Positions 1,828 to 50,339 of a stretch of 64,000 nucleotides of DNA are shown here, piece after piece. Below the pieces are notes generated by a model. The model did no database searches. It saw nothing but the letters and a program-made list of their open reading frames with translations, and was not told the DNA's origin. This DNA is from Escherichia coli (GTDB taxonomy: Bacteria > Pseudomonadota > Gammaproteobacteria > Enterobacterales > Enterobacteriaceae). Both the position numbers and the translations under genes were made by a program. Location of the stretch: NCBI RefSeq assembly GCF_044324785.1, contig NZ_CP172127.1. One strand, 5' to 3'. The first letter of the stretch is position 1. Each line of letters opens with the position of its first letter.

Positions 1828-4110
1828 CATCTGACGGTTTTTATTGAAGTTAATCAAACTACCCGCCTTGATAATCTCGCGTTCTTCAGCAGTCAGACTT
1901 TCCATATAGAGCGTAATCTCTGTTACCGGCGCATCTTCATGGATCACATAACCTTTAAACGTCGTACCCGGATTATCCAGCGCCGCTTTAATGCCAGGGA
2001 TGTAAATGTAATCCCCCACTTCAAACGCTGGTGCTTCCGCCATTTGCAGCGGTAACATCCCCCAGTTGATGACGTTAGAACGGTAGCGTTTAGTCGCGTA
2101 TTCCTCGGCAATATTCGCCAGACCGCCAATCACACGCTGGCAGCTCGCCGCCTGCTCACGCGCAGAACCATCGCCTGGTTTCACCGCATAGACCATGCTG
2201 CCAATTTCAGTTTGCAGCGGATCAATATGCTCCTGACCAGCAATCTGCTTAATGCGCGCAAACACCTCTGTCAGCTCACTGACATTCCCCGCCAGACGCT
2301 GATTTTCCAGCTCAGCAGTCGCTTTACTTCTGCCAACATAACCTGGATCGCGGCGTGACAGGGTAAACTCCGCCAGACCAATCGGATTTGAACGATAAGA
2401 AGATGTTTCACCGGAAGGAATCAGTTCGTCGGTGGTGGTCACTTCGTCGAGGATCTTCGAGCACACTTTGAGGACGATATTGTCAGTCAGCGCACCCAAT
2501 TCCGGCCAGTCTTTAATGTTCGGTCCGTAAATCAGCGGTTGCTGGGTCGCCCCTTTCACAAAGCCCTGATAAACACGGTTTTTATACGGCGTTACATCGA
2601 AGGCGTACTCCGGCACGTTGTCCCAGCAATCCAGCTCGCTGGCAGAGGTTAAATAGCCACCGTTTGCCGCAGTCGCAGCGATGGAACGAGCGTCCATCAA
2701 CGCCACTGCTGACATCTGCCCATTGGCTGGCTTAGAGCCTTCGCGGTTCGGGAAGTTACGCGTGGTGTGGCGAATACTCAAACCGTTGTTGATTGGCGTA
2801 TCGCCCGCGCCGAAGCATGGGCCGCAGAACGCGGTTCTGATGATTGCGCCTGCGCCAATCAAATCTGCTACCACGCCTTTTTTGGCTAAATCCATAAACA
2901 CCGGCTGTGATGACGGGTAAACCGCCAGCGAGAAGGTGTCATTGCCACAGGATTGACCGCGCAGTGCATTCGCCGCCGCGATGACGTTTTCGTAGTTACC
3001 GCCAGAACAGCCCGCGATAATCCCCTGCTGCACTTTCAGGCGACCATTTTCCACTTTATCCAGCAGCGAGAGTTTGGCTTTACCGTGCGCCACGCGTTCG
3101 GACTCAATTTCAATCTCACGCAGAATGTCGGTCAGGTTCTGGTTCAGCGTGTCGATTTCATACACGTTGCTCGGGTGGAACGGCAGCGCAATCATTGGTT
3201 TGATGGCGCTTAAATCAACGCTGATGCAGCCATCGTAGTACGCCATCGGTTGAGGGTTAAGCTGGCAGTAATCCTGGCCGCGACCGTGCAGCGCCAGCCA
3301 GTTATGGACTTCTTCATCGGTTTGCCAGATAGAACTTAAACAGGTCGTTTCAGTGGTCATAACGTCAACGCTGTTACGGAAATCGGTAGAGAGCGCAGCA
3401 ACACCGGGACCTACGAATTCCATCACTTTGTTTTTGACGTAGCCGTTTTTGAACACGGCACCGATGATAGCCAGCGCCACATCCTGTGGCCCCACATACG
3501 GCGCAGGTTTTCCGGTCAGATGCACCGCAACAACTCCCGGATAGTCGATATCCCAGGTGTCATTAAGCAGCTGTTTTACCAACTCACCGCCACCCTCACC
3601 GACTGCCATTGTCCCTAATGCACCGTAACGGGTGTGGCTGTCTGACCCGAGGATCATTTTGCCCCCGCCTGCCATCATCTCACGCATATATTGATGGATG
3701 ACCGCAATATGCGGAGGCACAAAAATACCGCCATAACGCTGAGCTGCCGATAAACCAAAAACATGGTCATCACCGTTAATGGTGCCGCCGACGGCGCAGA
3801 GTGAGTTATGGCAGTTGGTCAGCACATACGGCAGCGGGAAACGTTCCATACCGGACGCTTTAGCGGTCTGTACAATACCAACAAAGGTAATATCGTGAGA
3901 GGCTAATGAATCAAACTTAATTTTAAGTTTATCCATATTTCCGGACGTATTATGAGAAGAGAGAATAGACCAGGCAATAGTGCCTTTTTTTGCTTCTTCT
4001 TTTTTAATTTCGCCGGTGAAATGTTCTTCGGCAATTATTTCGTTATTACTGGCGAGAAACACGCCTTTTTCAGATAACTTGATCATCAAATGCTCCAGAT
4101 ATCTGCGCAC
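1825..4110 (-). CDS. ybhJ: Aconitase-family hydratase
   Basis: 761 aa ORF; aconitase-like sequence; position in ybhHIJ cluster. Confidence 0.8.
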
Positions 4111-4152
4111 CGTGAAGTGCGCAGAAAGATAATAAATGGATATACTCTAAAT

Positions 4153-4268
4153 AATTCGAGTTGCAGGAAGGCGACAAGCGAGTGAATCCCCAGGAGCTTA
4201 CATAAGTAAGTGACTGGGGTGAGCGAACGCAGACGCAGCACATGCAACTTGAAGTATGACGAGTATAT
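4153..4268. repeat. ERIC/IRU enterobacterial repetitive intergenic consensus element
   Basis: Contains gtgaatccccaggagcttacat and aagtaagtgactggggtgagcg, the two halves of the ERIC inverted repeat (the classical ERIC primer sites). Confidence 0.8.
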
Positions 4269-5702
4269 TTACAGCATGTTCCAGCCGATCAGCATATTCC
4301 ACCACCACACTCCGAGGGTGATATGCACCAGGAAGGTTAATATCGTCAGTACCGCACCGACCAACCACCAGGATTTAATATCGTTGTAACCCACGCCAAA
4401 GATGACCGGACCTGCCGCGCCGCCATAGTGAGTAACCATGCCGCCATAGGAGTTGGAGAACAACAGTGCCAGCGCGGTTAACATTAACGGTGCGCCGGAG
4501 ACGTTCGCCAGCATGGCAAATACCGGTAACATGGCAACGATATAGGCACTACCGGAAGCGAAGAAATAACGCACGATAATGCTGAGGAAAATAATAACGA
4601 AGAAAGCAACGTTACCGTGACCATCAAATGCCAGGTTATTTTTAAAGACTTCAGCTAACCATTCGAAGAATTTCACTTTCGATAATAAGGAGCTTAAGCC
4701 GATAATACCGCCGTACCAGATTAAGGTATTCCAGCCGCCTTTATTTTTAACCACGTCTTCCCAGGTAACGATACCCAGCAGCAGCATAGTCGCCATAACA
4801 ACGATTGCCACGGTGGATTCATCAACCCCCAGTGACTTACTGAAAATCCAGCCCAGTAGCGCCAGCACAAAGACACCGAGCAGCATTTTTTCGCGGATTT
4901 TCATCGGTCCCAGTTCGGCAAGGCCCGCTTTGGCGATGGTTTTGTTATCCACCTTCTTAATTTCTGGCGGATACATGGTGTAAATCACCAGCGGGGTGAC
5001 CAGCAGCATAATGATACCCGGCAATCCAGCGGCCAGCGCCCATCCACCCCAGCTAATTTGCAGGTGCAGAATGTCGTTGATCATTTTCAGCGCCAGAATG
5101 TTCCCCGCCATTGCGGTAAAGAACATATAGCTGGTGGTTTTGGTGACCATGTAAATGGACATCATCAGGTAATGTCCGACACGACGCGGACTTTTTTCCG
5201 GTTCGGACCCCAAAGCCACCGCCACACTGTTGATGATCGGTAACACAATGCCGCCCGCACGCGCGGTGTTAGACGGTGTTGCCGGAGCCAGTACCAGATC
5301 GAGGAATACCGTAACGTAACCCAGACCCAGCGTGGTGTTACCGATTTTACCAATCAGCAGATAGGCTATACGTTTGCCTAAGCCGGTGGTCACAAATGCG
5401 GCGCTTAAGGTGAACGCCGAGAACACCAGCCAGGTGGTACCTGAAGAGTAACCGCTTAATACGGCGGTGGTCTTAAACGCACCGTCGGATAAGTTACCGA
5501 CCACCACCATTGAGGCAGCAACGGCAATTAACAGTACGACAGGTTCCGGGAAAGGCTTGATAACCAGCCCCACAATGGCCGCCAGGTAAATACCAAAAAG
5601 CACCCACGCCAGTTCGCTTAATCCTGCCGGAGCTGGCATAAAGCCAATAATACATGGGATCGCTAATATCAGAATTAGCTTCCATAACGATTTTTTATTC
5701 AT
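4269..5702 (-). CDS. ybhI: DASS-family anion/tricarboxylate transporter
   Basis: 477 aa highly hydrophobic ORF; synteny. Confidence 0.8.
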   Translation of the reverse strand: MNKKSLWKLILILAIPCIIGFMPAPAGLSELAWVLFGIYLAAIVGLVIKPFPEPVVLLIAVAASMVVVGNLSDGAFKTTAVLSGYSSGTTWLVFSAFTLSAAFVTTGLGKRIAYLLIGKIGNTTLGLGYVTVFLDLVLAPATPSNTARAGGIVLPIINSVAVALGSEPEKSPRRVGHYLMMSIYMVTKTTSYMFFTAMAGNILALKMINDILHLQISWGGWALAAGLPGIIMLLVTPLVIYTMYPPEIKKVDNKTIAKAGLAELGPMKIREKMLLGVFVLALLGWIFSKSLGVDESTVAIVVMATMLLLGIVTWEDVVKNKGGWNTLIWYGGIIGLSSLLSKVKFFEWLAEVFKNNLAFDGHGNVAFFVIIFLSIIVRYFFASGSAYIVAMLPVFAMLANVSGAPLMLTALALLFSNSYGGMVTHYGGAAGPVIFGVGYNDIKSWWLVGAVLTILTFLVHITLGVWWWNMLIGWNML

Positions 5703-34322: not shown

Positions 34323-35891
34323 TTAGCGTGCCGGCTGAGTAGTCGTGGAAGACTGCTCAAAGTGATAGCGACCGGTTTTCAGGCTGCTTGGGCCGAGGCG
34401 TGCAAACTTGAACATTAAGAACAATTCTGCCACCAGGAACAGGGTATACAGGCCGCAAATCAGCACCATTGAGAAGATGAGGTCGCCTGCGGTCAGTGAC
34501 GAGTTCGCCACAGCTGTCGGCAGCACTTCACCGATAGCCCACGGTTGGCGGCCATATTCAGCCACAAACCAGCCCGCTTCTACAGCAATCCACGGCAGCG
34601 GAATACCGTACAGCGCGGCGCGCAGCAGCCATTTTTTCTCGCCAATGCGGTTGCGGATGACACTCCAGAAAGAGAGCGCGATGATTGCCAGCAGCAGGAA
34701 GCCACACGCCACCATGATACGGAACGCGAAGTACAGCGGCGCTACACGTGGAATGGAGTCTTTGGTTGCCTGTTGAATCTGCGCTTCAGTTGCATCCGCC
34801 ACGTTTGGCGTATAGCGTTTCAGCAGCAGACCGTAACCGAGGTCTTTCTTCATGCTATTGAACTGATCACGAACCGCCTGGTCGGTAGAACCAGAACGCA
34901 GTTGCTCGAGCAGAGAGTACGCCTTCATCCCGTTACGAATGCGTTCTTCATGCTGCACCATCAGTTCTTTCAGGCCGATAACTGGAGTATCCACGGAACG
35001 CGTTGCAATGATGCCCAGCGCGTAAGGGATCTGGATCGCAAATTTGTTCGTCTCCTCTTCCTGATCAGGAATGCCGAACAGAGTAAAGGCAGCAGGCGCA
35101 GGTTGCGTTTCCCACTCGGCTTCAATAGCAGCCAGTTTGGTTTTCTGCACGTCGCCCATTTCGTAGCCGGATTCATCACCCAGAACAATAACAGACAGAA
35201 CGGCAGCCATACCGAAGCTGGCAGCGATAGCAAAGGAGCGTTTAGCGAAGGCGAAGTCACGACCTTTCAGCATATACCATGCGCTGATACCGAGGATGAA
35301 CATCGCGCCAGTCACATAACCAGACGCTACAGTGTGAACGAATTTCACCTGAGCAACCGGGTTAAGCACCAGCTCGGAGAAGCTCACCATCTCCATACGC
35401 ATAGTTTCAAAGTTGAAATCGGATGCGATTGGGTTTTGCATCCAGCCGTTCGCAACCAGAATCCACAGTGCGGACAGGTTTGAACCGAGCGCCACCAGCC
35501 AGGTGACACACATATGCTGAACTTTACCCAGACGATCCCAACCGAAGAAGAACAGACCTACAAAGGTGGATTCGAGGAAGAAGGCCATCAGACCTTCGAT
35601 TGCCAGCGGCGCACCGAAGATATCCCCTACATAGTGGGAATAGTAAGACCAGTTAGTCCCGAACTGGAACTCCATGGTCAGACCGGTAGCCACACCCAGA
35701 GCGAAGTTGATACCAAACAACTTGCCCCAGAACTTGGTCATATCTTTATAAATCTGTTTGCCGGAAAGGACGTAGACCGTTTCCATAATGGCCAGCAGGA
35801 ACGCCATACCGAGCGTCAGTGGCACAAAAAGGAAGTGGTACATCGCGGTCAAGGCAAACTGTAAGCGCGACAGTTCGACTATATCTAACAT
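34323..35891 (-). CDS. cydA: Cytochrome bd-I ubiquinol oxidase subunit I
   Basis: N-terminus [20 protein letters not shown]; start placed at second Met of the ORF-track frame. Confidence 0.9.
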
Positions 35892-36229
35892 CATGACTCC
35901 TTGCTCATCGCATGAAGACTCCGAGAGTGAACCCCGTTAGAAAGGGTCACACGCATGCCCCAATACAAAATTATTTGCTCGCCTCTATCGTTGCCATTTC
36001 ATCAAAAGAGGAAAAGACAATGATAAAAAAGTTACAAATATGTTAATGAATAAACCAAATTGATCCCGTAATTATATTACGCCGCAAAATCCTTACAATA
36101 AACAGGTTTTTATTGAGCAAATTTGCATTTTTCGACAGTGATCAATTTATAGCGAAATTGTCACGACATCACCAATTTGATCTACGACAATTTATCGTGT
36201 TTTGCAGATTTTTTTCAAGAATTAAAAAT

Positions 36230-36243
36230 TGATTTATATCAAA
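36230..36243. promoter_or_regulatory. FNR-type site (TTGAT-N4-ATCAA) in the cydAB upstream region
   Basis: Perfect ttgatttatatcaa palindrome about 340 bp upstream of cydA in a long AT-rich leader; cydAB is FNR/ArcA-regulated. Confidence 0.4.
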
Positions 36244-36696
36244 ATCAGCCAAATATGTTAATTATGTATAAACCATAGATCATTGGTAATTTTATTGTTA
36301 ATTTATTGTGAAATATTTATGCAACACAATTATTACAATGAAAAAGTATAGATAAAAAACCAGTGTTTTATTTAACAGAACCGCCCTATCCACTTTTTAT
36401 AATACCAATTGATTAGAGTAGCCAATTTGTTGCTATTTTACATAACATATTTTTATCAAAGTTAATTGATTGTTGCCTTTATGAGCACCGACCGTAAGCC
36501 CGTTATGTTATTGTTTCATTAGTAATAATCACTTAAATGTATCGATAAAACAGGTATGACTTAGCGGGAGTGATTGTTTCTGAGTGAACAGAGGACACTT
36601 TCGCCTGATAAATGAAAAATGAGCGATTTTTGCAAGTTAGTTTTTCTATAGCCGAGTACGCTCAGCGCCTCGCTTGATTACAATGAGGTTGCTGCT

Positions 36697-37641
36697 ATGA
36701 GTCCTGATAATATCGGTTCGGCTGTCAATCGCTTCTTAGGTTGGCCATCTAATGATCCTCTAAAAACAGATAACGAATCAATGACATCACCCGTGACTGT
36801 GCAGGTAATAAAGATGATTGCCGCCATCCTTGACCCACATCGGATAGTCGTTGGAATCGATACACTTTATACAACGCAGCGCGAAACATTTACCTCAGAG
36901 AGTCAACAGCTCATTGAATCAGCATTGCAAACACTTCATGTGATGAATTTAAATAACCTGGAAACAAATCTCGATGAGGAAGGTCACTATCTGGCTTTTG
37001 GATATAACGTTGACACTCCTGACAGAATAACCGTTTCTGCTTATAATGAAAAAAAGCCTGGCTGCTATGGTCAATGTCTTTTAATACAGGATGACGAAAC
37101 AGACTTATTTAACCTGATAAAAGTTAAAATTTTTGAAACCAGGCATAATTATGTCGCTCAATTGATGAGCGATCCGGAATTTATGTTCAAATTTAGTTAT
37201 AGCGCTCAACAAAATAGATTAGAACCTCATCTTCTGGTTCCCACTTATTTCCCTCTAAAAACAAACGAACCGGTTACGCAAGAGGATGTACTGTTACTTT
37301 ATCGTTTCTTTAAAATGGATGGTGATTTTAATATATTAACATCAGATGAATACATGAGTATCATGACACCTCTGATGAAGTGTGAGCGCAGCATCCACGA
37401 CCACAACAGGTATGTGACGGGCAAAGATACCCTTCTTCTGGACTATCCTCCTTCTGGTAACCAGATATATTTCCATATTTTTCCTGACGAATCAGCAACA
37501 CTAGTCCTTTATTTTTCAAACAATGACATTGAATGTTTCGTCTTTGAAAGAGATATTCCGAGCCAGTATCGCTTTTTCAAAATGTTTACCAATCTGGCAC
37601 TGGTTATTGATCAGTTAACCGATGCCAATCAAATACTTTAA
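36697..37641 (+). CDS. Hypothetical protein (314 aa), no recognisable family, low G+C
   Basis: Long ORF with GAGG RBS 8 nt upstream of ATG; AT-rich codon usage unlike flanking core genes; N-terminus rich in Ser/Thr/Asn/Pro; absent from this position in K-12 as recalled. Confidence 0.5.
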   Translation: MSPDNIGSAVNRFLGWPSNDPLKTDNESMTSPVTVQVIKMIAAILDPHRIVVGIDTLYTTQRETFTSESQQLIESALQTLHVMNLNNLETNLDEEGHYLAFGYNVDTPDRITVSAYNEKKPGCYGQCLLIQDDETDLFNLIKVKIFETRHNYVAQLMSDPEFMFKFSYSAQQNRLEPHLLVPTYFPLKTNEPVTQEDVLLLYRFFKMDGDFNILTSDEYMSIMTPLMKCERSIHDHNRYVTGKDTLLLDYPPSGNQIYFHIFPDESATLVLYFSNNDIECFVFERDIPSQYRFFKMFTNLALVIDQLTDANQIL

Positions 37642-37721
37642 TTTTTATATATTCCCTGTGGCAAATATTGCTAAACAATGCCCGGGGATTAATTTTTATT
37701 ACTCACGGAAAGATTTAAATA

Positions 37722-38144
37722 ATGATCCCATCTCAAATCTCTTTCAACACCCTTCCTGTCAATGCAACATACGCTTCAGAGACAACAGTTGACACACAAA
37801 AATTCTCTGACATCCTCTACTCAGCGGGGTGTTCCCTAAAGGATCTGGCTTATCTGAGCAGATGTCTGGCATCAATACATCCGACTATCGCCAAAAACAT
37901 TTATGAAACAGAAAATCTCAGCGATCAAAAATTACTGCATATTGATTGCCGTAGTACAAATGAAATCAAGATAAATATCTTTTTTGGTCAACAACGAGAA
38001 GGATTAATTGAAATTAATTCTGACACTGTCATTTTTCCGATATTGTCTTCATTAATTGACTCCGCCATTTCTAAATTTCAACACCAAATCCCCGTTAACG
38101 GTTCAGTAAATCCTGACCTATTGTATGAGGATTATACTGATTAA
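37722..38144 (+). CDS. Hypothetical protein (140 aa), acidic, low G+C
   Basis: ORF 80 bp downstream of and co-oriented with the 314 aa ORF; similar AT-rich composition; acidic C-terminus (LLYEDYTD). Confidence 0.4.
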   Translation: MIPSQISFNTLPVNATYASETTVDTQKFSDILYSAGCSLKDLAYLSRCLASIHPTIAKNIYETENLSDQKLLHIDCRSTNEIKINIFFGQQREGLIEINSDTVIFPILSSLIDSAISKFQHQIPVNGSVNPDLLYEDYTD

Positions 38145-38691
38145 ATCCCTCCTGTCGCGAAAAATGGCCTGCGTTATTGCCAGACGTAATAAAACTTTTG
38201 ATTAACGTTACTCGTACTGGTAGCACCTTCATGTACTTTTCTTTTTTACGAAAAATCAAAAGAGCTAACAAAGGTCATAATTCGCATGAATCATTAATTA
38301 TTTGTTATTTTCAACATTATTTTTACATTAAGCAGAGATGAATTGCAGTGAAATTCGACTTAACTTTTATGAAATGCATTTACTCATGGCTAAAGCCACG
38401 TCACAAAAATGCAAATTAGAAGTTGATCACAATTATCTCAATACATCAAATCAAGTTAATTTTAAAAATTTAACATTCATGACATTAGTTGACATAACAC
38501 ACTGAATTAAAATGATAATTTGAAAACACACTTTAAACAATCATTTCCCGAAAGACATTTTGAAAATAGATCAATTGCAACATTACGGTCAGATAAAGAC
38601 ACTCCTGTGATATTAAACCTGTGCCGTTATGAGCGGCCATAAATACGACGTGTGTAACTTATTTTACTCTCTGTCTTACAAAGGATTACCC

Positions 38692-39141
38692 ATGAAGAAA
38701 GCAACACTTGTGATTGGCGTTATTGGCGCGGACTGCCATGCAGTAGGCAATAAAGTTCTGGACCGAGTTTTTAGCAACCATGACTTCAGAGTTATTAATC
38801 TGGGCGTAATGGTCAGCCAGGACGAATATATTGATGCTGCCATTGAAACTGGTGCTGACGCGATTGTCGTCTCCTCTATCTATGGGCATGGCGATATCGA
38901 TTGTCTGGGCATGCGCGAACGCTGCATCGAGCGTGGGCTGGGTAACATCCTGCTCTATGTGGGCGGTAACCTGGTGGTCGGAAAACATGACTTCGCTGAC
39001 GTGGAAACCAAGTTCAAAGAGATGGGATTTGATCGCGTCTTTTCCCCAAGTCATGACTTAGAAGATGTTTGTCAGCTGATGGCCCACGATATCAACCAAC
39101 GTCATGACGTTGATACTCGCATTCTTGAAGAGGCAATCTGA
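38692..39141 (+). CDS. glmS: Glutamate mutase sigma (B12-binding) subunit
   Basis: [18 protein letters not shown] cobalamin-binding motif (DxHxxG); start placed at MKKATLV with AAGGA RBS; stop overlaps the next start. Confidence 0.85.
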
Positions 39142-40529
39142 TGCAAATCGTCTCTGTCGATATTGGATCGACGTGGACCAAAGCAGCCCTCTTCACCCGG
39201 GAGGGGGACGCGTTAACGTTGGTTAACCACGTTCTGACCCCAACCACCACCCATCATCTGGCGAAGGGGTTTTTCTCCAGCCTGGACCAGGTGTTAAACG
39301 TAGATAATGCCCTCCCCCTGTTAAACAGTGGTGAGGTTGCATTGAAGTATTCCTCCTCTGCCAAAGGTGGGCTGGCGGTTGCCGCAATGGGATTGGTGCC
39401 TTCTATCACCCTGGAAACCGCGAAAGTAACCGCTCACTCTGCGGGGGCTAAAATTGCGCAATATTACGCCTACAAGCTGAACCGCCGTGATATCCAGGCA
39501 CTGGAAGAAACGCAGCCCGATATTCTCTTGTTCACCGGCGGCACCGACGGCGGAGAAGAAAGCTACGGCCTGAATAACGCCCGTGTGCTGGCAGAATCCA
39601 AACTCGACTGCGCCATTATTTATGCCGGAAACCGGGATATTCAGGACGAGGTGCAGGAGATCCTAGGGCATAAAGACCTGACCATCGTCGACAATGTTCT
39701 GCCCGATCTTGACCATCCGAACCCTTTAGCTGCACGCCAGGCTATCTGCGACATATTCCTTAAACGCATCGTTAAAGGGAAAGGGCTGGATGTCGTTGTT
39801 GATAAAACAGGCGAAGAACCAATGCCGACACCGTGGACAGTCTTTGAACTGGTTAAGGCAATCAGTAATGTCGATCACAGCTGGAAAGAGTTCATGCTGA
39901 TCGACATGGGTGGCGCAACCACCGATGTCTATTCCGCCTGTGCCAACACGCTCTCGCCCGACACCGTTTTACACGGCGTACCGGAACCCTTCGTGAAACG
40001 GACGGTGGAAGGCGATCTGGGAATGCGCGTCTCGGCAATGGTGGTTGGTGAAAGTGCGAAAGAGTTAGTCAATGTGAATTTTGCTCAGCAACCCGCACAG
40101 CTGGACGCTTTTTATCATTACCTCCGTCATCTAGTCGCTCATCCCGACTACTTACCCGCGAATGCAGAAGAAAAATATTTCGATACCGTCCTGGCCGGAC
40201 TGTGTGTGGGTTATGCCACCGAAAGACATGCGGGCACCAAAAAAGAGGTCTGCACCTGCGTCGGCAATGTCGATTTACAGATGGGACGTGACCTGACAAC
40301 CGTGCGTAAAGTCGTCGGATCCGGCGGATGGCTCTCGCGTGCCAGTCAGTTCGATATGCATCACTGGTTGAAATACCGCGAGTTAAACGACGACGGTAAA
40401 CGCATTCTCTTACCGACCGAATTTGAATATTACCGCGATTCCCGGGGGCTATTACCACTGCTGGCAAACGTCGCCAGAGTCGATCCACTGGCCGCCGCGC
40501 GCACCAGTATTCAATGCTTAACCCTATAA
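39141..40529 (+). CDS. glmL: Glutamate mutase accessory/reactivating protein (MutL/GlmL-like)
   Basis: 462 aa starting [18 protein letters not shown] (ASKHA/actin-like ATPase fold); sits between the S and E subunit genes as in clostridial glutamate mutase operons. Confidence 0.75.
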   Translation: MQIVSVDIGSTWTKAALFTREGDALTLVNHVLTPTTTHHLAKGFFSSLDQVLNVDNALPLLNSGEVALKYSSSAKGGLAVAAMGLVPSITLETAKVTAHSAGAKIAQYYAYKLNRRDIQALEETQPDILLFTGGTDGGEESYGLNNARVLAESKLDCAIIYAGNRDIQDEVQEILGHKDLTIVDNVLPDLDHPNPLAARQAICDIFLKRIVKGKGLDVVVDKTGEEPMPTPWTVFELVKAISNVDHSWKEFMLIDMGGATTDVYSACANTLSPDTVLHGVPEPFVKRTVEGDLGMRVSAMVVGESAKELVNVNFAQQPAQLDAFYHYLRHLVAHPDYLPANAEEKYFDTVLAGLCVGYATERHAGTKKEVCTCVGNVDLQMGRDLTTVRKVVGSGGWLSRASQFDMHHWLKYRELNDDGKRILLPTEFEYYRDSRGLLPLLANVARVDPLAAARTSIQCLTL

Positions 40530-45055: not shown

Positions 45056-45082
45056 ATCGCCGTGCACCTGATGGAGGAAAAA

Positions 45083-46363
45083 ATGAAGAAAATAAGTTTA
45101 ACCACGATGATTCTTTTGGCGCTGGTACTTGGAATGATTATCGGCGTAGTGCTCAATAACACTGCTTCACCGGAAACCGCAAAACTCTATGCGCAAGAAA
45201 TATCGATATTCACGACGATTTTCTTACGACTGATAAAAATGATTATCGCTCCGTTAGTGGTCTCTACCCTGGTGGTAGGTATAGCTAAAATGGGCGATGC
45301 CAAAGCCCTTGGTCGTATTTTTTCTAAAACACTCTTTTTATTTATTTGCGCCTCATTGCTGTCAATTGCCTTAGGCTTGATAACAGTAAATTTCTTCATG
45401 CCAGGCACAGGAATTAATTTTGTTGCACACGGAGCCGAAACCACCGGAGTGGTCGCGTCAGAACCCTTTACGCTAAAAGTATTTATTTCGCATGCTTTCC
45501 CCACCAGCATTGTCGATGCCATGGCGCACAATGAAATTTTGCAAATCGTGGTGTTCTCAATTTTCCTCGGCTGTAGCCTGACGGCGATTGGCGAGAAAGG
45601 CAGCGCCATCGTTCACGCCTTAGATTCGCTGGCACATGCCATGTTAAAGCTCACTGGCTACGTCATGCTCTTCGCTCCCCTGACCGTATTCGCTGCTATT
45701 TCAGCATTGATTGCTGAACGAGGACTGGCAGTTATGGTGAGCGCCGGGATCTTTATGGGTGAATTTTATTTCACCATGTTATTACTTTGGGTGCTGCTTA
45801 TCGGTCTGGCCATCGTTTATGTCGGCCCCTGCATCAGACGCCTGACCCGCGCCCTTTCGGAACCCGCCCTGCTGGCATTTACCACATCCAGTTCTGAAGC
45901 GGCTTTTCCGGGAACGCTTGAAAAACTGGAGCAATTTGGCGTTTCCCCCAAAATTGCCAGCTTTGTCTTACCCATTGGCTACTCATTTAATCTCGTTGGA
46001 TCAATGGCCTACTGCTCCTTCGCCACAGTTTTCATCGCCCAGGCCTGCAATATCCATTTATCCATCGGTGAGCAAATCACCATGCTGTTGATCCTGATGT
46101 TGACCTCGAAAGGAATGGCTGGCGTACCACGCGCCTCAATGGTGGTTATCGCCGCCACGCTCAACCAGTTCAATATTCCGGAAGCGGGGCTGATCTTGCT
46201 GATGGGCGTTGATCCGTTCCTTGATATGGGGCGTTCCGCGACAAACGTCATGAGCAACGCAATGGGCGCTGCGATGGTGAGTCGGTGGGAAGGCGAACAT
46301 TTCGGCGAGGGCTGTCGGGGTAAAGCATTAAAACCCAATGAATCGAACGTTGCTCTGCCCTGA
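45083..46363 (+). CDS. Dicarboxylate/amino acid:cation symporter (GltP/DctA family), probable glutamate uptake
   Basis: Hydrophobic ORF, start placed at MKKISL with GGAGG RBS; GltP-like N-terminus. Confidence 0.8.
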   Translation: MKKISLTTMILLALVLGMIIGVVLNNTASPETAKLYAQEISIFTTIFLRLIKMIIAPLVVSTLVVGIAKMGDAKALGRIFSKTLFLFICASLLSIALGLITVNFFMPGTGINFVAHGAETTGVVASEPFTLKVFISHAFPTSIVDAMAHNEILQIVVFSIFLGCSLTAIGEKGSAIVHALDSLAHAMLKLTGYVMLFAPLTVFAAISALIAERGLAVMVSAGIFMGEFYFTMLLLWVLLIGLAIVYVGPCIRRLTRALSEPALLAFTTSSSEAAFPGTLEKLEQFGVSPKIASFVLPIGYSFNLVGSMAYCSFATVFIAQACNIHLSIGEQITMLLILMLTSKGMAGVPRASMVVIAATLNQFNIPEAGLILLMGVDPFLDMGRSATNVMSNAMGAAMVSRWEGEHFGEGCRGKALKPNESNVALP

Positions 46364-46470
46364 GGGGGATCTTAAGCAATCAGAAGCCAATGACTACGCA
46401 TTTTTATAAGCCGGATCATGAAGTTAGACGGCAATTAAGTAACACTAACGTTTAAGGTGAAAAGTGAAAT

Positions 46471-49674: not shown

Positions 49675-49705
49675 AATGCCGTCCCTTAAAAATAGTTTAA
49701 ACCAT

Positions 49706-49723
49706 CAAAAATACATTACTTAT
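49706..49723. promoter_or_regulatory. Inverted repeat TTACTT-N6-AAGTAA upstream of the LysR gene
   Basis: Perfect 6 bp arms about 32 bp upstream of the LysR start; fits a T-N11-A LysR-type box. Confidence 0.3.
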
Positions 49724-50239
49724 TACGAAGTAATGGTAACCAAAGCAGCAATAAATAATTTATAAGAATCATGATTGACATTTATAACCCAGTAAGCCTG
49801 GCGTGACAAATATCTTAATCAGATAATAATAATCCGAAAAGCACAGCGCCTTTCGAATTATCCGGAATCACATTAAGTGAAAATTATTAAATTGATATCA
49901 TTTATCATATCTGTGGATATTATGATAAACAATCAACAAAGATTTTATTTTTGATTTATAGCATATCCCTCTAAGAATTTTTGCGATGCTGCAATATCCG
50001 GGGTAAAGACCCGATCCTGGCTGACAAATGGCACGACTTGACGATAAGCGGTGAACATCGCTTTTGTTGATTTACTTAACGCTACGGTCAAACGCTGGGA
50101 AGCCAGTGCATCAGGTAACGATTCGAAATTCGCCGTCGTTCTTATTCGTGGCTTGCGGTCGGTTGCGGCAATCCACAGTGGCTGTGGTCATGCAGTCAAG
50201 CCAGCGGTCAGATTTCGACCGTGGTTAACGTTTAAGGCA

Positions 50240-50339
50240 TAAAAAAGGCCATCATACGATGGCCAACCATGTCGAAACCGACAGCCCTTCGCCATTCCTG
50301 TAGAGGGAAGCGGCGAGGGCTATTTCTTATTACAGATAT
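50240..50339 (-). ncRNA. sdhX: sucD 3'UTR-derived sRNA (SdhX/RybD-like) with intrinsic terminator
   Basis: About 100 nt directly downstream of the sucD stop ending in hairpin ggccatcgtatgatggcc plus U-run on the minus transcript; identity by position and memory only. Confidence 0.45.

Follow-up and report, generated by a model that had tools for sequence, protein, structure and literature searches.

The locus described here is the methylaspartate-pathway cluster of Kronen and Berg (2015; PMC4682846), the enterobacterial version of which includes an LTTR (PMC4682846). The pathway is an oxygen-limited fermentation (Kato and Asano, as cited in PMC4682846). Methylaspartate ammonia-lyase activity has been shown by other enterobacteria, whereas in E. 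coli O157:H7 no tested condition gave expression of the cluster or activity of this enzyme (PMC4682846). The cluster is carried by about a fifth of E. coli genomes, O157:H7 included, and by many Klebsiella, Citrobacter, Yersinia and Morganella. In the literature searched we found no transcript mapping for the operon, no data on its regulator and no link between it and H-NS.

Several described kinds of control region can be compared with the DNA that precedes the first gene of this operon, glmS. The closest likeness appears to be with the LysR-dependent catabolic promoters (GcvA at gcvT, DsdC at dsdXA, TdcA at tdc), and the region would be, in kind, a conventional activator-dependent catabolic promoter. 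The general form of a LysR box is T-N11-A. Other traits recall the class II CRP/FNR anaerobic promoters, the promoters with an UP element (contacted by alpha-CTD from −59 to −38), the H-NS-silenced islands of E. coli and the adenosylcobalamin-riboswitch leaders (RF00174). What is new here would be only a specific, previously undescribed putative operator and the predicted promoter of the operon.

The window, i.e., the whole stretch of E. coli DNA that was analysed (64 kb), is 99.9% identical to E. coli strain N3 and 99.3% to strain 042. It contains a strain-variable island bounded by cydA and sucD, with the order cydA (−), two orphan ORFs of 314 and 140 aa, the gap studied here, glmS-glmL-glmE-mal-atuA-DUF4387-gltP-fumD-cobO (+), a LysR-family gene (−) and sucD. 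The gap (38145–38691, 547 bp) extends from the stop codon of the 140-aa ORF at 38144 to the annotated glmS ATG at 38692. Its GC content is 0.32, compared to 0.50 for the whole window, dips to 0.26 around 38300–38600 and ranges from 0.26 to 0.34 over 38300–38700, and A/T tracts of at least four bases reach 33 per kb versus 10 per kb in the window. The earlier note on this DNA, made from the letters alone, had pointed to a long, very AT-rich stretch between the orphan ORFs and the mutase operon, and these figures confirm it. With the gene coordinates borrowed from the near-identical strain N3, and counting intergenic gaps of at least 30 bp, only two of the 40 exceed this one in length (median 147 bp), and few are as poor in GC (median 0.42). 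The two longer ones, upstream of cydA (805 bp, GC 0.33) and upstream of the LysR gene (665 bp, GC 0.40), border the same island; the gap is unusual for the window and not for its neighborhood. It was found in 1135 of 5426 complete E. coli genomes (21%), at identities of 89–99.8%, and none of 40 records sampled from these 1135 had an annotated feature under it. Yersinia (534 bp) and Morganella and Hafnia (ca. 650 bp) also have a long gap upstream of glmS, indicating that it is ancestral. The coordinates of the features discussed below are listed in Table 1.

Table 1. Location in the window of the genes, predicted elements and conserved blocks at the glm locus.
Feature	Start	End	Strand	Remarks
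Two orphan ORFs	36697	38144	+	314 aa (36697–37641) and 140 aa (37722–38144); an insertion that separates the control region of cydA from that of glm
Cassette 3' flank	38145	38285		Part of the E. coli-specific orphan cassette (about 36538–38285); outside the ancestral glm upstream region
Block E	38283	38327		Start of the ancestral glm upstream region; aligned in Escherichia, Citrobacter, Klebsiella and Salmonella
Block B	38405	38436		CRP-like site TTAGAAGTTGATCACA at 38416–38431, centre ca. 186 bp upstream of the predicted start
Block D	38496	38512		Semi-conserved AACACAyTGAtwTaAA; TG at 38503–38504 invariant in 31 sequences
Box A	38550	38577	+	28-bp putative operator GAAAGACATTTTGAAAATAGATCAATTG; conserved in 51 unique sequences
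Predicted −35	38575	38580	+	TTGCAA; TTG invariant in 51 of 51, next three bases vary
Predicted −10	38598	38603	+	GACACT; nAnAnT, always separated from TTGnnn by exactly 17 variable bases
Predicted 5'UTR	38610	38691	+	About 82 nt, start deduced from the −10; Shine-Dalgarno AAGGA at 38681–38685
glmS	38692	39141	+	B12-binding subunit of methylaspartate (glutamate) mutase; first operon gene; RefSeq annotation of N3 and 042
Island LysR-type regulator	48769	49674	−	GcvA/DsdC-like; candidate box A binder

The comparison with more than 50 Enterobacterales loci shows that the gap is made of two parts of different origin, namely the tail of the orphan cassette (about 141 bp, 38145–38285) and an ancestral glm upstream region (about 406 bp, 38286–38691). 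The orphan ORFs are missing in Klebsiella, Citrobacter, Salmonella arizonae/diarizonae, E. whittamii and others, where glmS and cydA diverge directly from each other over ca. 1.2–1.4 kb. In E. whittamii and Escherichia sp. E1V33 cydA and glmS are separated by a spacer of 1373–1380 bp without the orphan ORFs. This spacer aligns to the window only at 35895–36537, on the cydA side, and at 38286–38327 and 38401–38691, on the glm side, and its middle 320 bp are replaced in E. coli by 36538–38285, the home of the two orphan ORFs. Four divergent E. coli lineages keep both ORFs intact, and the dN/dS values are about 0.3, compared to 0.05–0.11 for glmS. Neither had a match in Pfam, NCBIfam, PADLOC or PDB, and they were absent from this site in the other genera compared. 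The cassette tail is the most variable part of the gap within E. coli (18–36% variable columns); its RNA fold was not significant, and the promoter/terminator scan gave no terminator-like site in it.

One could take the whole gap for a functionless AT-rich spacer that arrived by horizontal transfer and is coated by H-NS, its apparent features being due to chance. The low GC, the high density of A-tracts, the presence of the island in only 21% of the E. coli genomes and the lack of detected expression in O157:H7 (PMC4682846) would all agree with such an origin. However, the near-invariant blocks reach as far as Morganella and Yersinia, with randomised sequence in between, and box A has no polymorphism at all in E. 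coli. This pattern of conservation largely refutes the idea for 38286–38691, and as an account of the gap we consider it very unlikely; for the left-hand 141 bp it may still be true.

Nor does the gap look like a gene for a small protein or a small RNA, a proposal that we regard as highly improbable. It does contain ORFs of 54, 55 and 40 aa, and older RefSeq annotations skip one locus tag at this place (EC042_RS03935, AXA56_RS20855, E2348C_RS03255), which suggests a feature once called and later withdrawn. However, single-base indels disrupt the 55-aa ORF, which starts with ATG (38338–38505), in strain MFDS1019527 and Escherichia sp. MOD1, and a Pfam search of the small ORFs gave no match. In tblastn comparisons with other genera several frames of both strands gave similarity over the same blocks of DNA, indicating conservation at the DNA and not at the protein level, and no ORF of the gap was found to be conserved across the relatives. 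An in-frame ATG at 38629, upstream of the glmS start, has no Shine-Dalgarno sequence and is missing in E. whittamii. The covariance-model scan for riboswitches and small RNAs called for in the earlier note was run with Rfam over 35500–39500 at E-values up to 10 and returned only chance eukaryotic families (E-values above 2); at eight related loci, with E-values up to 0.1, there was no match. No intrinsic terminator was detected over 37600–38800, and the absence of annotated features in the 40 sampled genomes also speaks against a gene here. The opinion that the stretch is non-coding, with no ORF preceded by a convincing ribosome binding site, was therefore sound, and the small RNA or leader peptide for which it had left room found no support.

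The likeness to the adenosylcobalamin-riboswitch leaders is one of setting, with a long region preceding a B12-dependent operon and cobalamin genes adjoining the glm operon in Yersinia, Morganella and Hafnia. Unlike those leaders, this region gave no match to RF00174, either here or in the eight relatives, and its predicted 5'UTR has no conserved structure. The fold of the latter is no better than that of shuffled sequences (z-score −0.6), and RNAalifold on a 22-genus alignment gave no consensus structure (−0.08 kcal/mol, no compensatory pairs). That no element resembling a cobalamin riboswitch is present had been seen already from the letters. The stretch would be transcription-control DNA and not a riboswitch leader, an attenuator, a small RNA locus or a small-protein gene. 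This corrects the annotation picture of the locus, which becomes that of an ancestral control region with the tail of a later insertion upstream of it.

The evidence for a promoter comes from phylogenetic footprinting. When the gap was compared by BLAST with 80 glmS loci of other species, a short core appeared that is common far beyond Escherichia. We aligned 51 unique upstream regions from Enterobacteriaceae, Yersiniaceae, Hafniaceae, Morganellaceae and Budviciaceae (with Yersinia, Hafnia, Morganella and Budvicia among the sources), without gaps, on the invariant octamer ATCAATTG (38570–38577 in the window). Box A has 16 positions with at least 1.75 bits over these 51 sequences of five families, and most columns upstream of about 38533 and within the promoter spacer have only 0.1–0.8 bits. 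Invariant or near-invariant bases include G38554, A38555, T38571, C38572, A38599 and T38603. Within the E. coli clade none of the 45 columns of 38536–38580 is polymorphic, compared to 18–36% of the columns in distal parts of the gap.

Box A abuts or overlaps the predicted −35, whose TTG is formed by the last three bases of the octamer; the next 20 columns are variable. The −10 that follows has A2, A4 and T6 nearly invariant (0.97–0.99), in the forms GACACT, GAAACT, CACACT, CACATT and CATATT. The two hexamers are 17 bp apart, within the 17 ± 1 bp of sigma-70 promoters, and this distance is fixed in the 51 sequences. From this geometry we predict a weak sigma-70 promoter with a start near 38610. 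The box and the predicted promoter lie within the 160 bp of the gap nearest to glmS. The −10 matches the consensus at 3 of 6 positions and both hexamers together at 7 of 12, which is why a consensus scan misses this conserved promoter and which implies dependence on an activator. Another −10 candidate, TATTAA (38611–16), lies just downstream and is conserved in Enterobacteriaceae, but it has no T at its end and is not kept in Yersinia or Morganella. The footprint bears out the suggestion that the stretch may hold the promoter of the operon. The comparative data predict the outcome that the earlier note had named as contrary to its own view, namely one promoter near glmS and no further RNA.

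We have also considered that most of the gap might be a transcribed leader, produced from a promoter farther upstream (e.g., 38489–38516) or by read-through from the orphan genes, box A then being a roadblock, a repressor operator or an RNA element. The site at 38489–38516 is the only one on the plus strand of the gap that passes the consensus scan (10 of 12), no terminator-like hairpin was found between the 140-aa ORF and glmS, and the 5'UTRs of the relatives would be 135–250 nt long even with the promoter that we favor. However, the −10 of the 38489 site differs from strain to strain, reading AATGAT here, AATGAG in a 042-like contig (L003), CATGGA in O157 and CATGAG in E2348/69, and its TTGACA is missing in other genera; promoter-like matches in the gap are at the level expected by chance (five found versus 5.0 expected). 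The fixed 17 bp between TTG and nAnAnT over five families is predicted by a promoter and not by a roadblock. As RNA, the palindrome AUUUUGAAAAU of box A would form a hairpin with a loop of only 1 nt, and there is no conserved RNA structure. A long leader seems unlikely, and the downstream promoter remains the preferred reading. The label of leader given to the entire stretch would be mostly a misnomer, since only about 82 nt are predicted to be transcribed together with glmS and the rest would be control DNA plus the 141-bp cassette flank.

Box A contains two overlapping symmetries. The first is a T-N11-A dyad, TGAAAATAGATCA (38561–38573), centred at about −43, the arms of which (TGA/TCA) are conserved, with T−9, A−7, T+1, C+2 and A+3 at 0.97–0.99 and G−8 at 0.85. 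The second is an imperfect 19-bp palindrome, GAyAT-N9-AkATC (38554–38572), centred at about −47. With a matrix built from box A the training sites scored 26–42 bits, no other site of the 64-kb window reached 10 bits, and the related loci provided only three weak additional sites (12–15 bits). No second copy was found in the window, in 96 loci or in the LysR upstream regions, i.e., there is one box per locus and always upstream of glmS. No paper containing its sequence was found in the literature searched.

The best single candidate for the protein that reads box A would be the LysR-type regulator of the island, on account of its co-occurrence with the island, its position in the cluster and the T-N11-A dyad, although we would call it possible and not probable. 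Pfam recognises the domains HTH_1 and LysR_substrate in the protein, and the best match in NCBIfam, which stays below the cut-off, is to GcvA. The gene is present in 1127 E. coli genomes, compared to 1135 for the gap, and has the same terminal position in the clusters of Klebsiella and Citrobacter. In Yersinia it lies 2.7 kb upstream of glmS, and in Rhodoferax and Aromatoleum related genes are divergent from glmS and next to it. The likeness to the LysR-dependent promoters thus includes a weak sigma-70 core, a T-N11-A dyad at the −35 (TGAAAATAGATCA falls within the −35 to −75 interval expected for LysR promoters) and a GcvA/DsdC-like gene in the same cluster in Escherichia, Klebsiella, Citrobacter and Yersinia. 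There are also differences. The regulator gene, classically adjacent to its target and divergent from it, does not diverge from the promoter here, and in E. coli it lies 10 kb away in convergent orientation; the box is kept where no LysR gene is near; and no box-like site was found at the promoter of the regulator. The CTAAT core of GcvA sites is absent from box A.

About equally likely as the island LysR, in our estimate, is an unlinked and widely conserved regulator of Enterobacterales. If box A were the operator of such a protein, common to all Enterobacterales, the rest of the model would be unchanged, and we consider this a real possibility short of a probable one. Morganella and Hafnia show full conservation of box A and the promoter; their glm clusters end at gltP and no LysR gene was found within 10 kb on either side, although in both an orthologue may lie elsewhere in the genome. 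The neighbor of the LysR gene in Citrobacter and Yersinia is sumT, in divergent orientation, which hints at a different primary target. The box A matrix gave no significant site in ten LysR upstream regions, where autoregulation through a shared motif would have predicted one. On the other side, the consensus scans for FNR, CRP and ArcA provided no support for any of these as the unlinked regulator at box A. As separate observations, no box clearly shared was seen in the divergent LysR-glmS spacers of Rhodoferax, Aromatoleum and IMCC1989, and the 11-mer AATAGATCAAT occurs upstream of the Klebsiella LysR gene, the latter being of anecdotal value.

The resemblance to class II CRP/FNR anaerobic promoters lies in a dyad placed ca. 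43 bp upstream of the predicted start, over the −35, in the poor hexamers and in the oxygen-limited pathway. For FNR, however, the box reads TTGAA-N5-ATCAA, one base too long compared to the TTGAT-N4-ATCAA expected near −41.5, and its left half is not conserved as TTGAT. The half-sites stand as TTGA-N7-TCAA instead of N6, a spacing that excludes FNR, and no FNR site with up to two mismatches was found in the box; the only such match elsewhere, at 38423, is not conserved. CRP had no match in the box with up to two mismatches, and neither the scan nor the reading of the sequence revealed the 11-bp-phased TGTTA repeats of ArcA. We also compared the box by eye with the consensuses for sigma-54, sigma-32, sigma-S, ArgR, NsrR, IHF, Fis, Cra, Lrp, NAC, KdgR and GadE, all of which were poor or out of register, a comparison to be used only as a source of leads. 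As to the UP elements, the box is A/T-rich and extends from −60 to −33. Its segment AAAGAyATTTTGAAAA matches the UP consensus (AAAWWTWTTTTNNNAAA) at 12 of 14 positions, although only after a shift of 2 bp, and at 8 of 11 in the canonical register. Unlike an UP element, box A has invariant G/C positions and the ATCAATTG core, which binding of alpha-CTD does not explain.

Conservation extends farther upstream, as seen in gapped alignments of 23–31 Enterobacteriaceae sequences. Block E contains a possible ArcA-like direct repeat, CATTAATTATTTGTTA (38292–38307), with two mismatches to TGTTA-N6-TGTTA. The CRP-like site of block B matches TGTGA-N6-TCACA at 8 of 10 positions, is the sole such match in the gap and has a TCAC core that is invariant in 31 aligned sequences. 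Its distance of about −186 is non-canonical for activation by CRP of the predicted promoter (−41.5, −61.5, −71.5, etc.). Block C is well defined in E. whittamii and the other genera and degenerate in E. coli. Block D overlaps TTGACA-N16-AATGAT (38489–38516), a near-consensus promoter-like sequence found only in this strain. The best reading of the whole 406 bp seems to be a control region with multiple inputs.

In our view the gap is probably the control DNA of the glmS-glmL-glmE-mal... operon, with a weak activator-dependent promoter, a conserved box and a likely proneness to H-NS. The −35 and the −10 would form a weak sigma-70 promoter firing near 38610 and giving a 5'UTR of ca. 82 nt without structure. 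An activator bound to box A, at the edge of the −35 or overlapping it, would recruit RNA polymerase; it might be the island LysR, responding to a metabolite of the pathway. Blocks B (CRP-like), D and E (ArcA-like) could feed in further inputs, and the AT-rich DNA, dense in A-tracts, would be a likely target for H-NS. It has the traits of H-NS-type DNA, i.e., AT-rich and acquired (GC 0.26–0.34, 33 A/T tracts per kb, island in 1135 of 5426 genomes); the published high-affinity H-NS motif has only one match in the gap, with two mismatches. Silencing of the operon by H-NS is plausible, judging from this composition and from the silence of O157:H7, which targeting by H-NS together with activator dependence would explain under laboratory conditions. 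The locus resembles the H-NS-silenced islands of E. coli in its AT-rich, A-tract-dense upstream DNA, in belonging to a strain-variable island and in the reported laboratory silence (PMC4682846). It differs from them in the normal GC of the operon body (0.50–0.58) and in the highly conserved specific sites within its AT-rich part. More speculatively, box A may be the operator of a so far unassigned regulator, be it the island LysR or one not yet tied to amino-acid fermentation, that switches on B12-dependent glutamate fermentation across Enterobacterales, the crypticity in E. coli being aided by the insertion of the cassette and the decay of block C. The footprint offers a testable handle on the lack of expression, consisting of a predicted start, a 28-bp putative operator with named invariant bases and three further blocks, and could help in the search for the regulator and for the inducing signal.

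Other genomes provide information about the stretch between the predicted promoter and glmS. In C. amalonaticus S646 an ERIC-like element is located there. A local comparison supports its ERIC type. An insertion at this place shows that the spacing of the stretch is free, as expected for a UTR. A similar-looking insertion was seen in the equivalent stretch of Budvicia.

Between the control regions of cydA and glm E. coli carries an inserted AT-rich cassette of two orphan genes (see table). The other species that were compared, E. whittamii and Escherichia sp. E1V33 among them, have no such cassette at the corresponding site. The two ORFs have kept unbroken reading frames in four divergent lineages, with dN/dS values of ca. 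0.3, which argues that they are probably real genes. Neither of them gave a match in searches of Pfam, NCBIfam, PADLOC and PDB.

Coordinates of features in the window and in the compared loci
Feature	Location	Description
Orphan cassette, AT-rich	36538-38285	Two genes, ORFs 36697-37641 and 37722-38144; between cydA and glm control regions, E. coli
Promoter-like site, near-consensus	38489-38516	TTGACA-N16-AATGAT; this strain
Non-coding stretch	49675-50339	665 bp, GC 0.40; upstream of LysR gene
ERIC-type repeat, one copy	4148-4269	ybhJ-ybhI gap
ERIC-type repeat	L015 3874-3972	Inside predicted glmS 5'UTR, C. amalonaticus S646
ERIC-type repeats, several copies	L028 2405-3274	Degraded orphan-cassette region, Escherichia sp. 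MOD1-EC7003
Candidate insertion	L039	Upstream of glmS, Budvicia; looks similar to the ERIC-type one of S646

The promoter-like site found in the gap between the 140-aa orphan ORF and glmS is probably also present in strain N3, judging from its 99.8% identity. In other E. coli strains the -10 reads AATGAG, CATGGA or CATGAG instead of AATGAT. The site could be a newly arisen promoter or a product of chance. In older RefSeq annotations (loci L001 and L002, and L085 from strain E2348/69) the series of locus tags leaves out a single number at precisely the gap that separates the 140-aa ORF from glmS, the absent tags being EC042_RS03935, AXA56_RS20855 and E2348C_RS03255, and the newer annotations are numbered through the gap with no jump. 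A feature formerly called here seems to have been withdrawn since.

In EPEC E2348/69 an ISEc13 copy inserted directly after glmS truncates the operon (positions 3547-5441 of its locus), with mngR coming next; what remains is glmS with the gap in front of it. In one strain, EC21Z-144 (H5), the annotation places an IS1 transposase somewhere inside the stretch homologous to 35900-39200.

Two metagenome-assembled contigs labelled as Collinsella sp. (L003) and Citrobacter sp. (L004) both contain this E. coli island. The identity is 97–100% for the proteins and 95–99.6% for the DNA of the gap. Both are probably mis-binned E. coli DNA.

At the other end of the island, the position of the non-coding stretch upstream of the LysR gene is occupied in Citrobacter and Yersinia by a divergent sumT (TP_methylase) gene, and hence in E. 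coli the stretch may be a leftover from the loss of sumT. Klebsiella and Citrobacter have the palindrome TCATGGA-N5-TCAATGA in front of their LysR gene, and its E. coli counterpart looks either degenerate or deleted. The clusters of these two genera also have, between gltP and fumD, a gene for glutaminase, which is missing from E. coli (stretch of the window compared: 45062-46470). In Morganella and Hafnia the clusters contain no fumD, cobO or LysR gene at all, and cobalamin-synthesis genes adjoin them.
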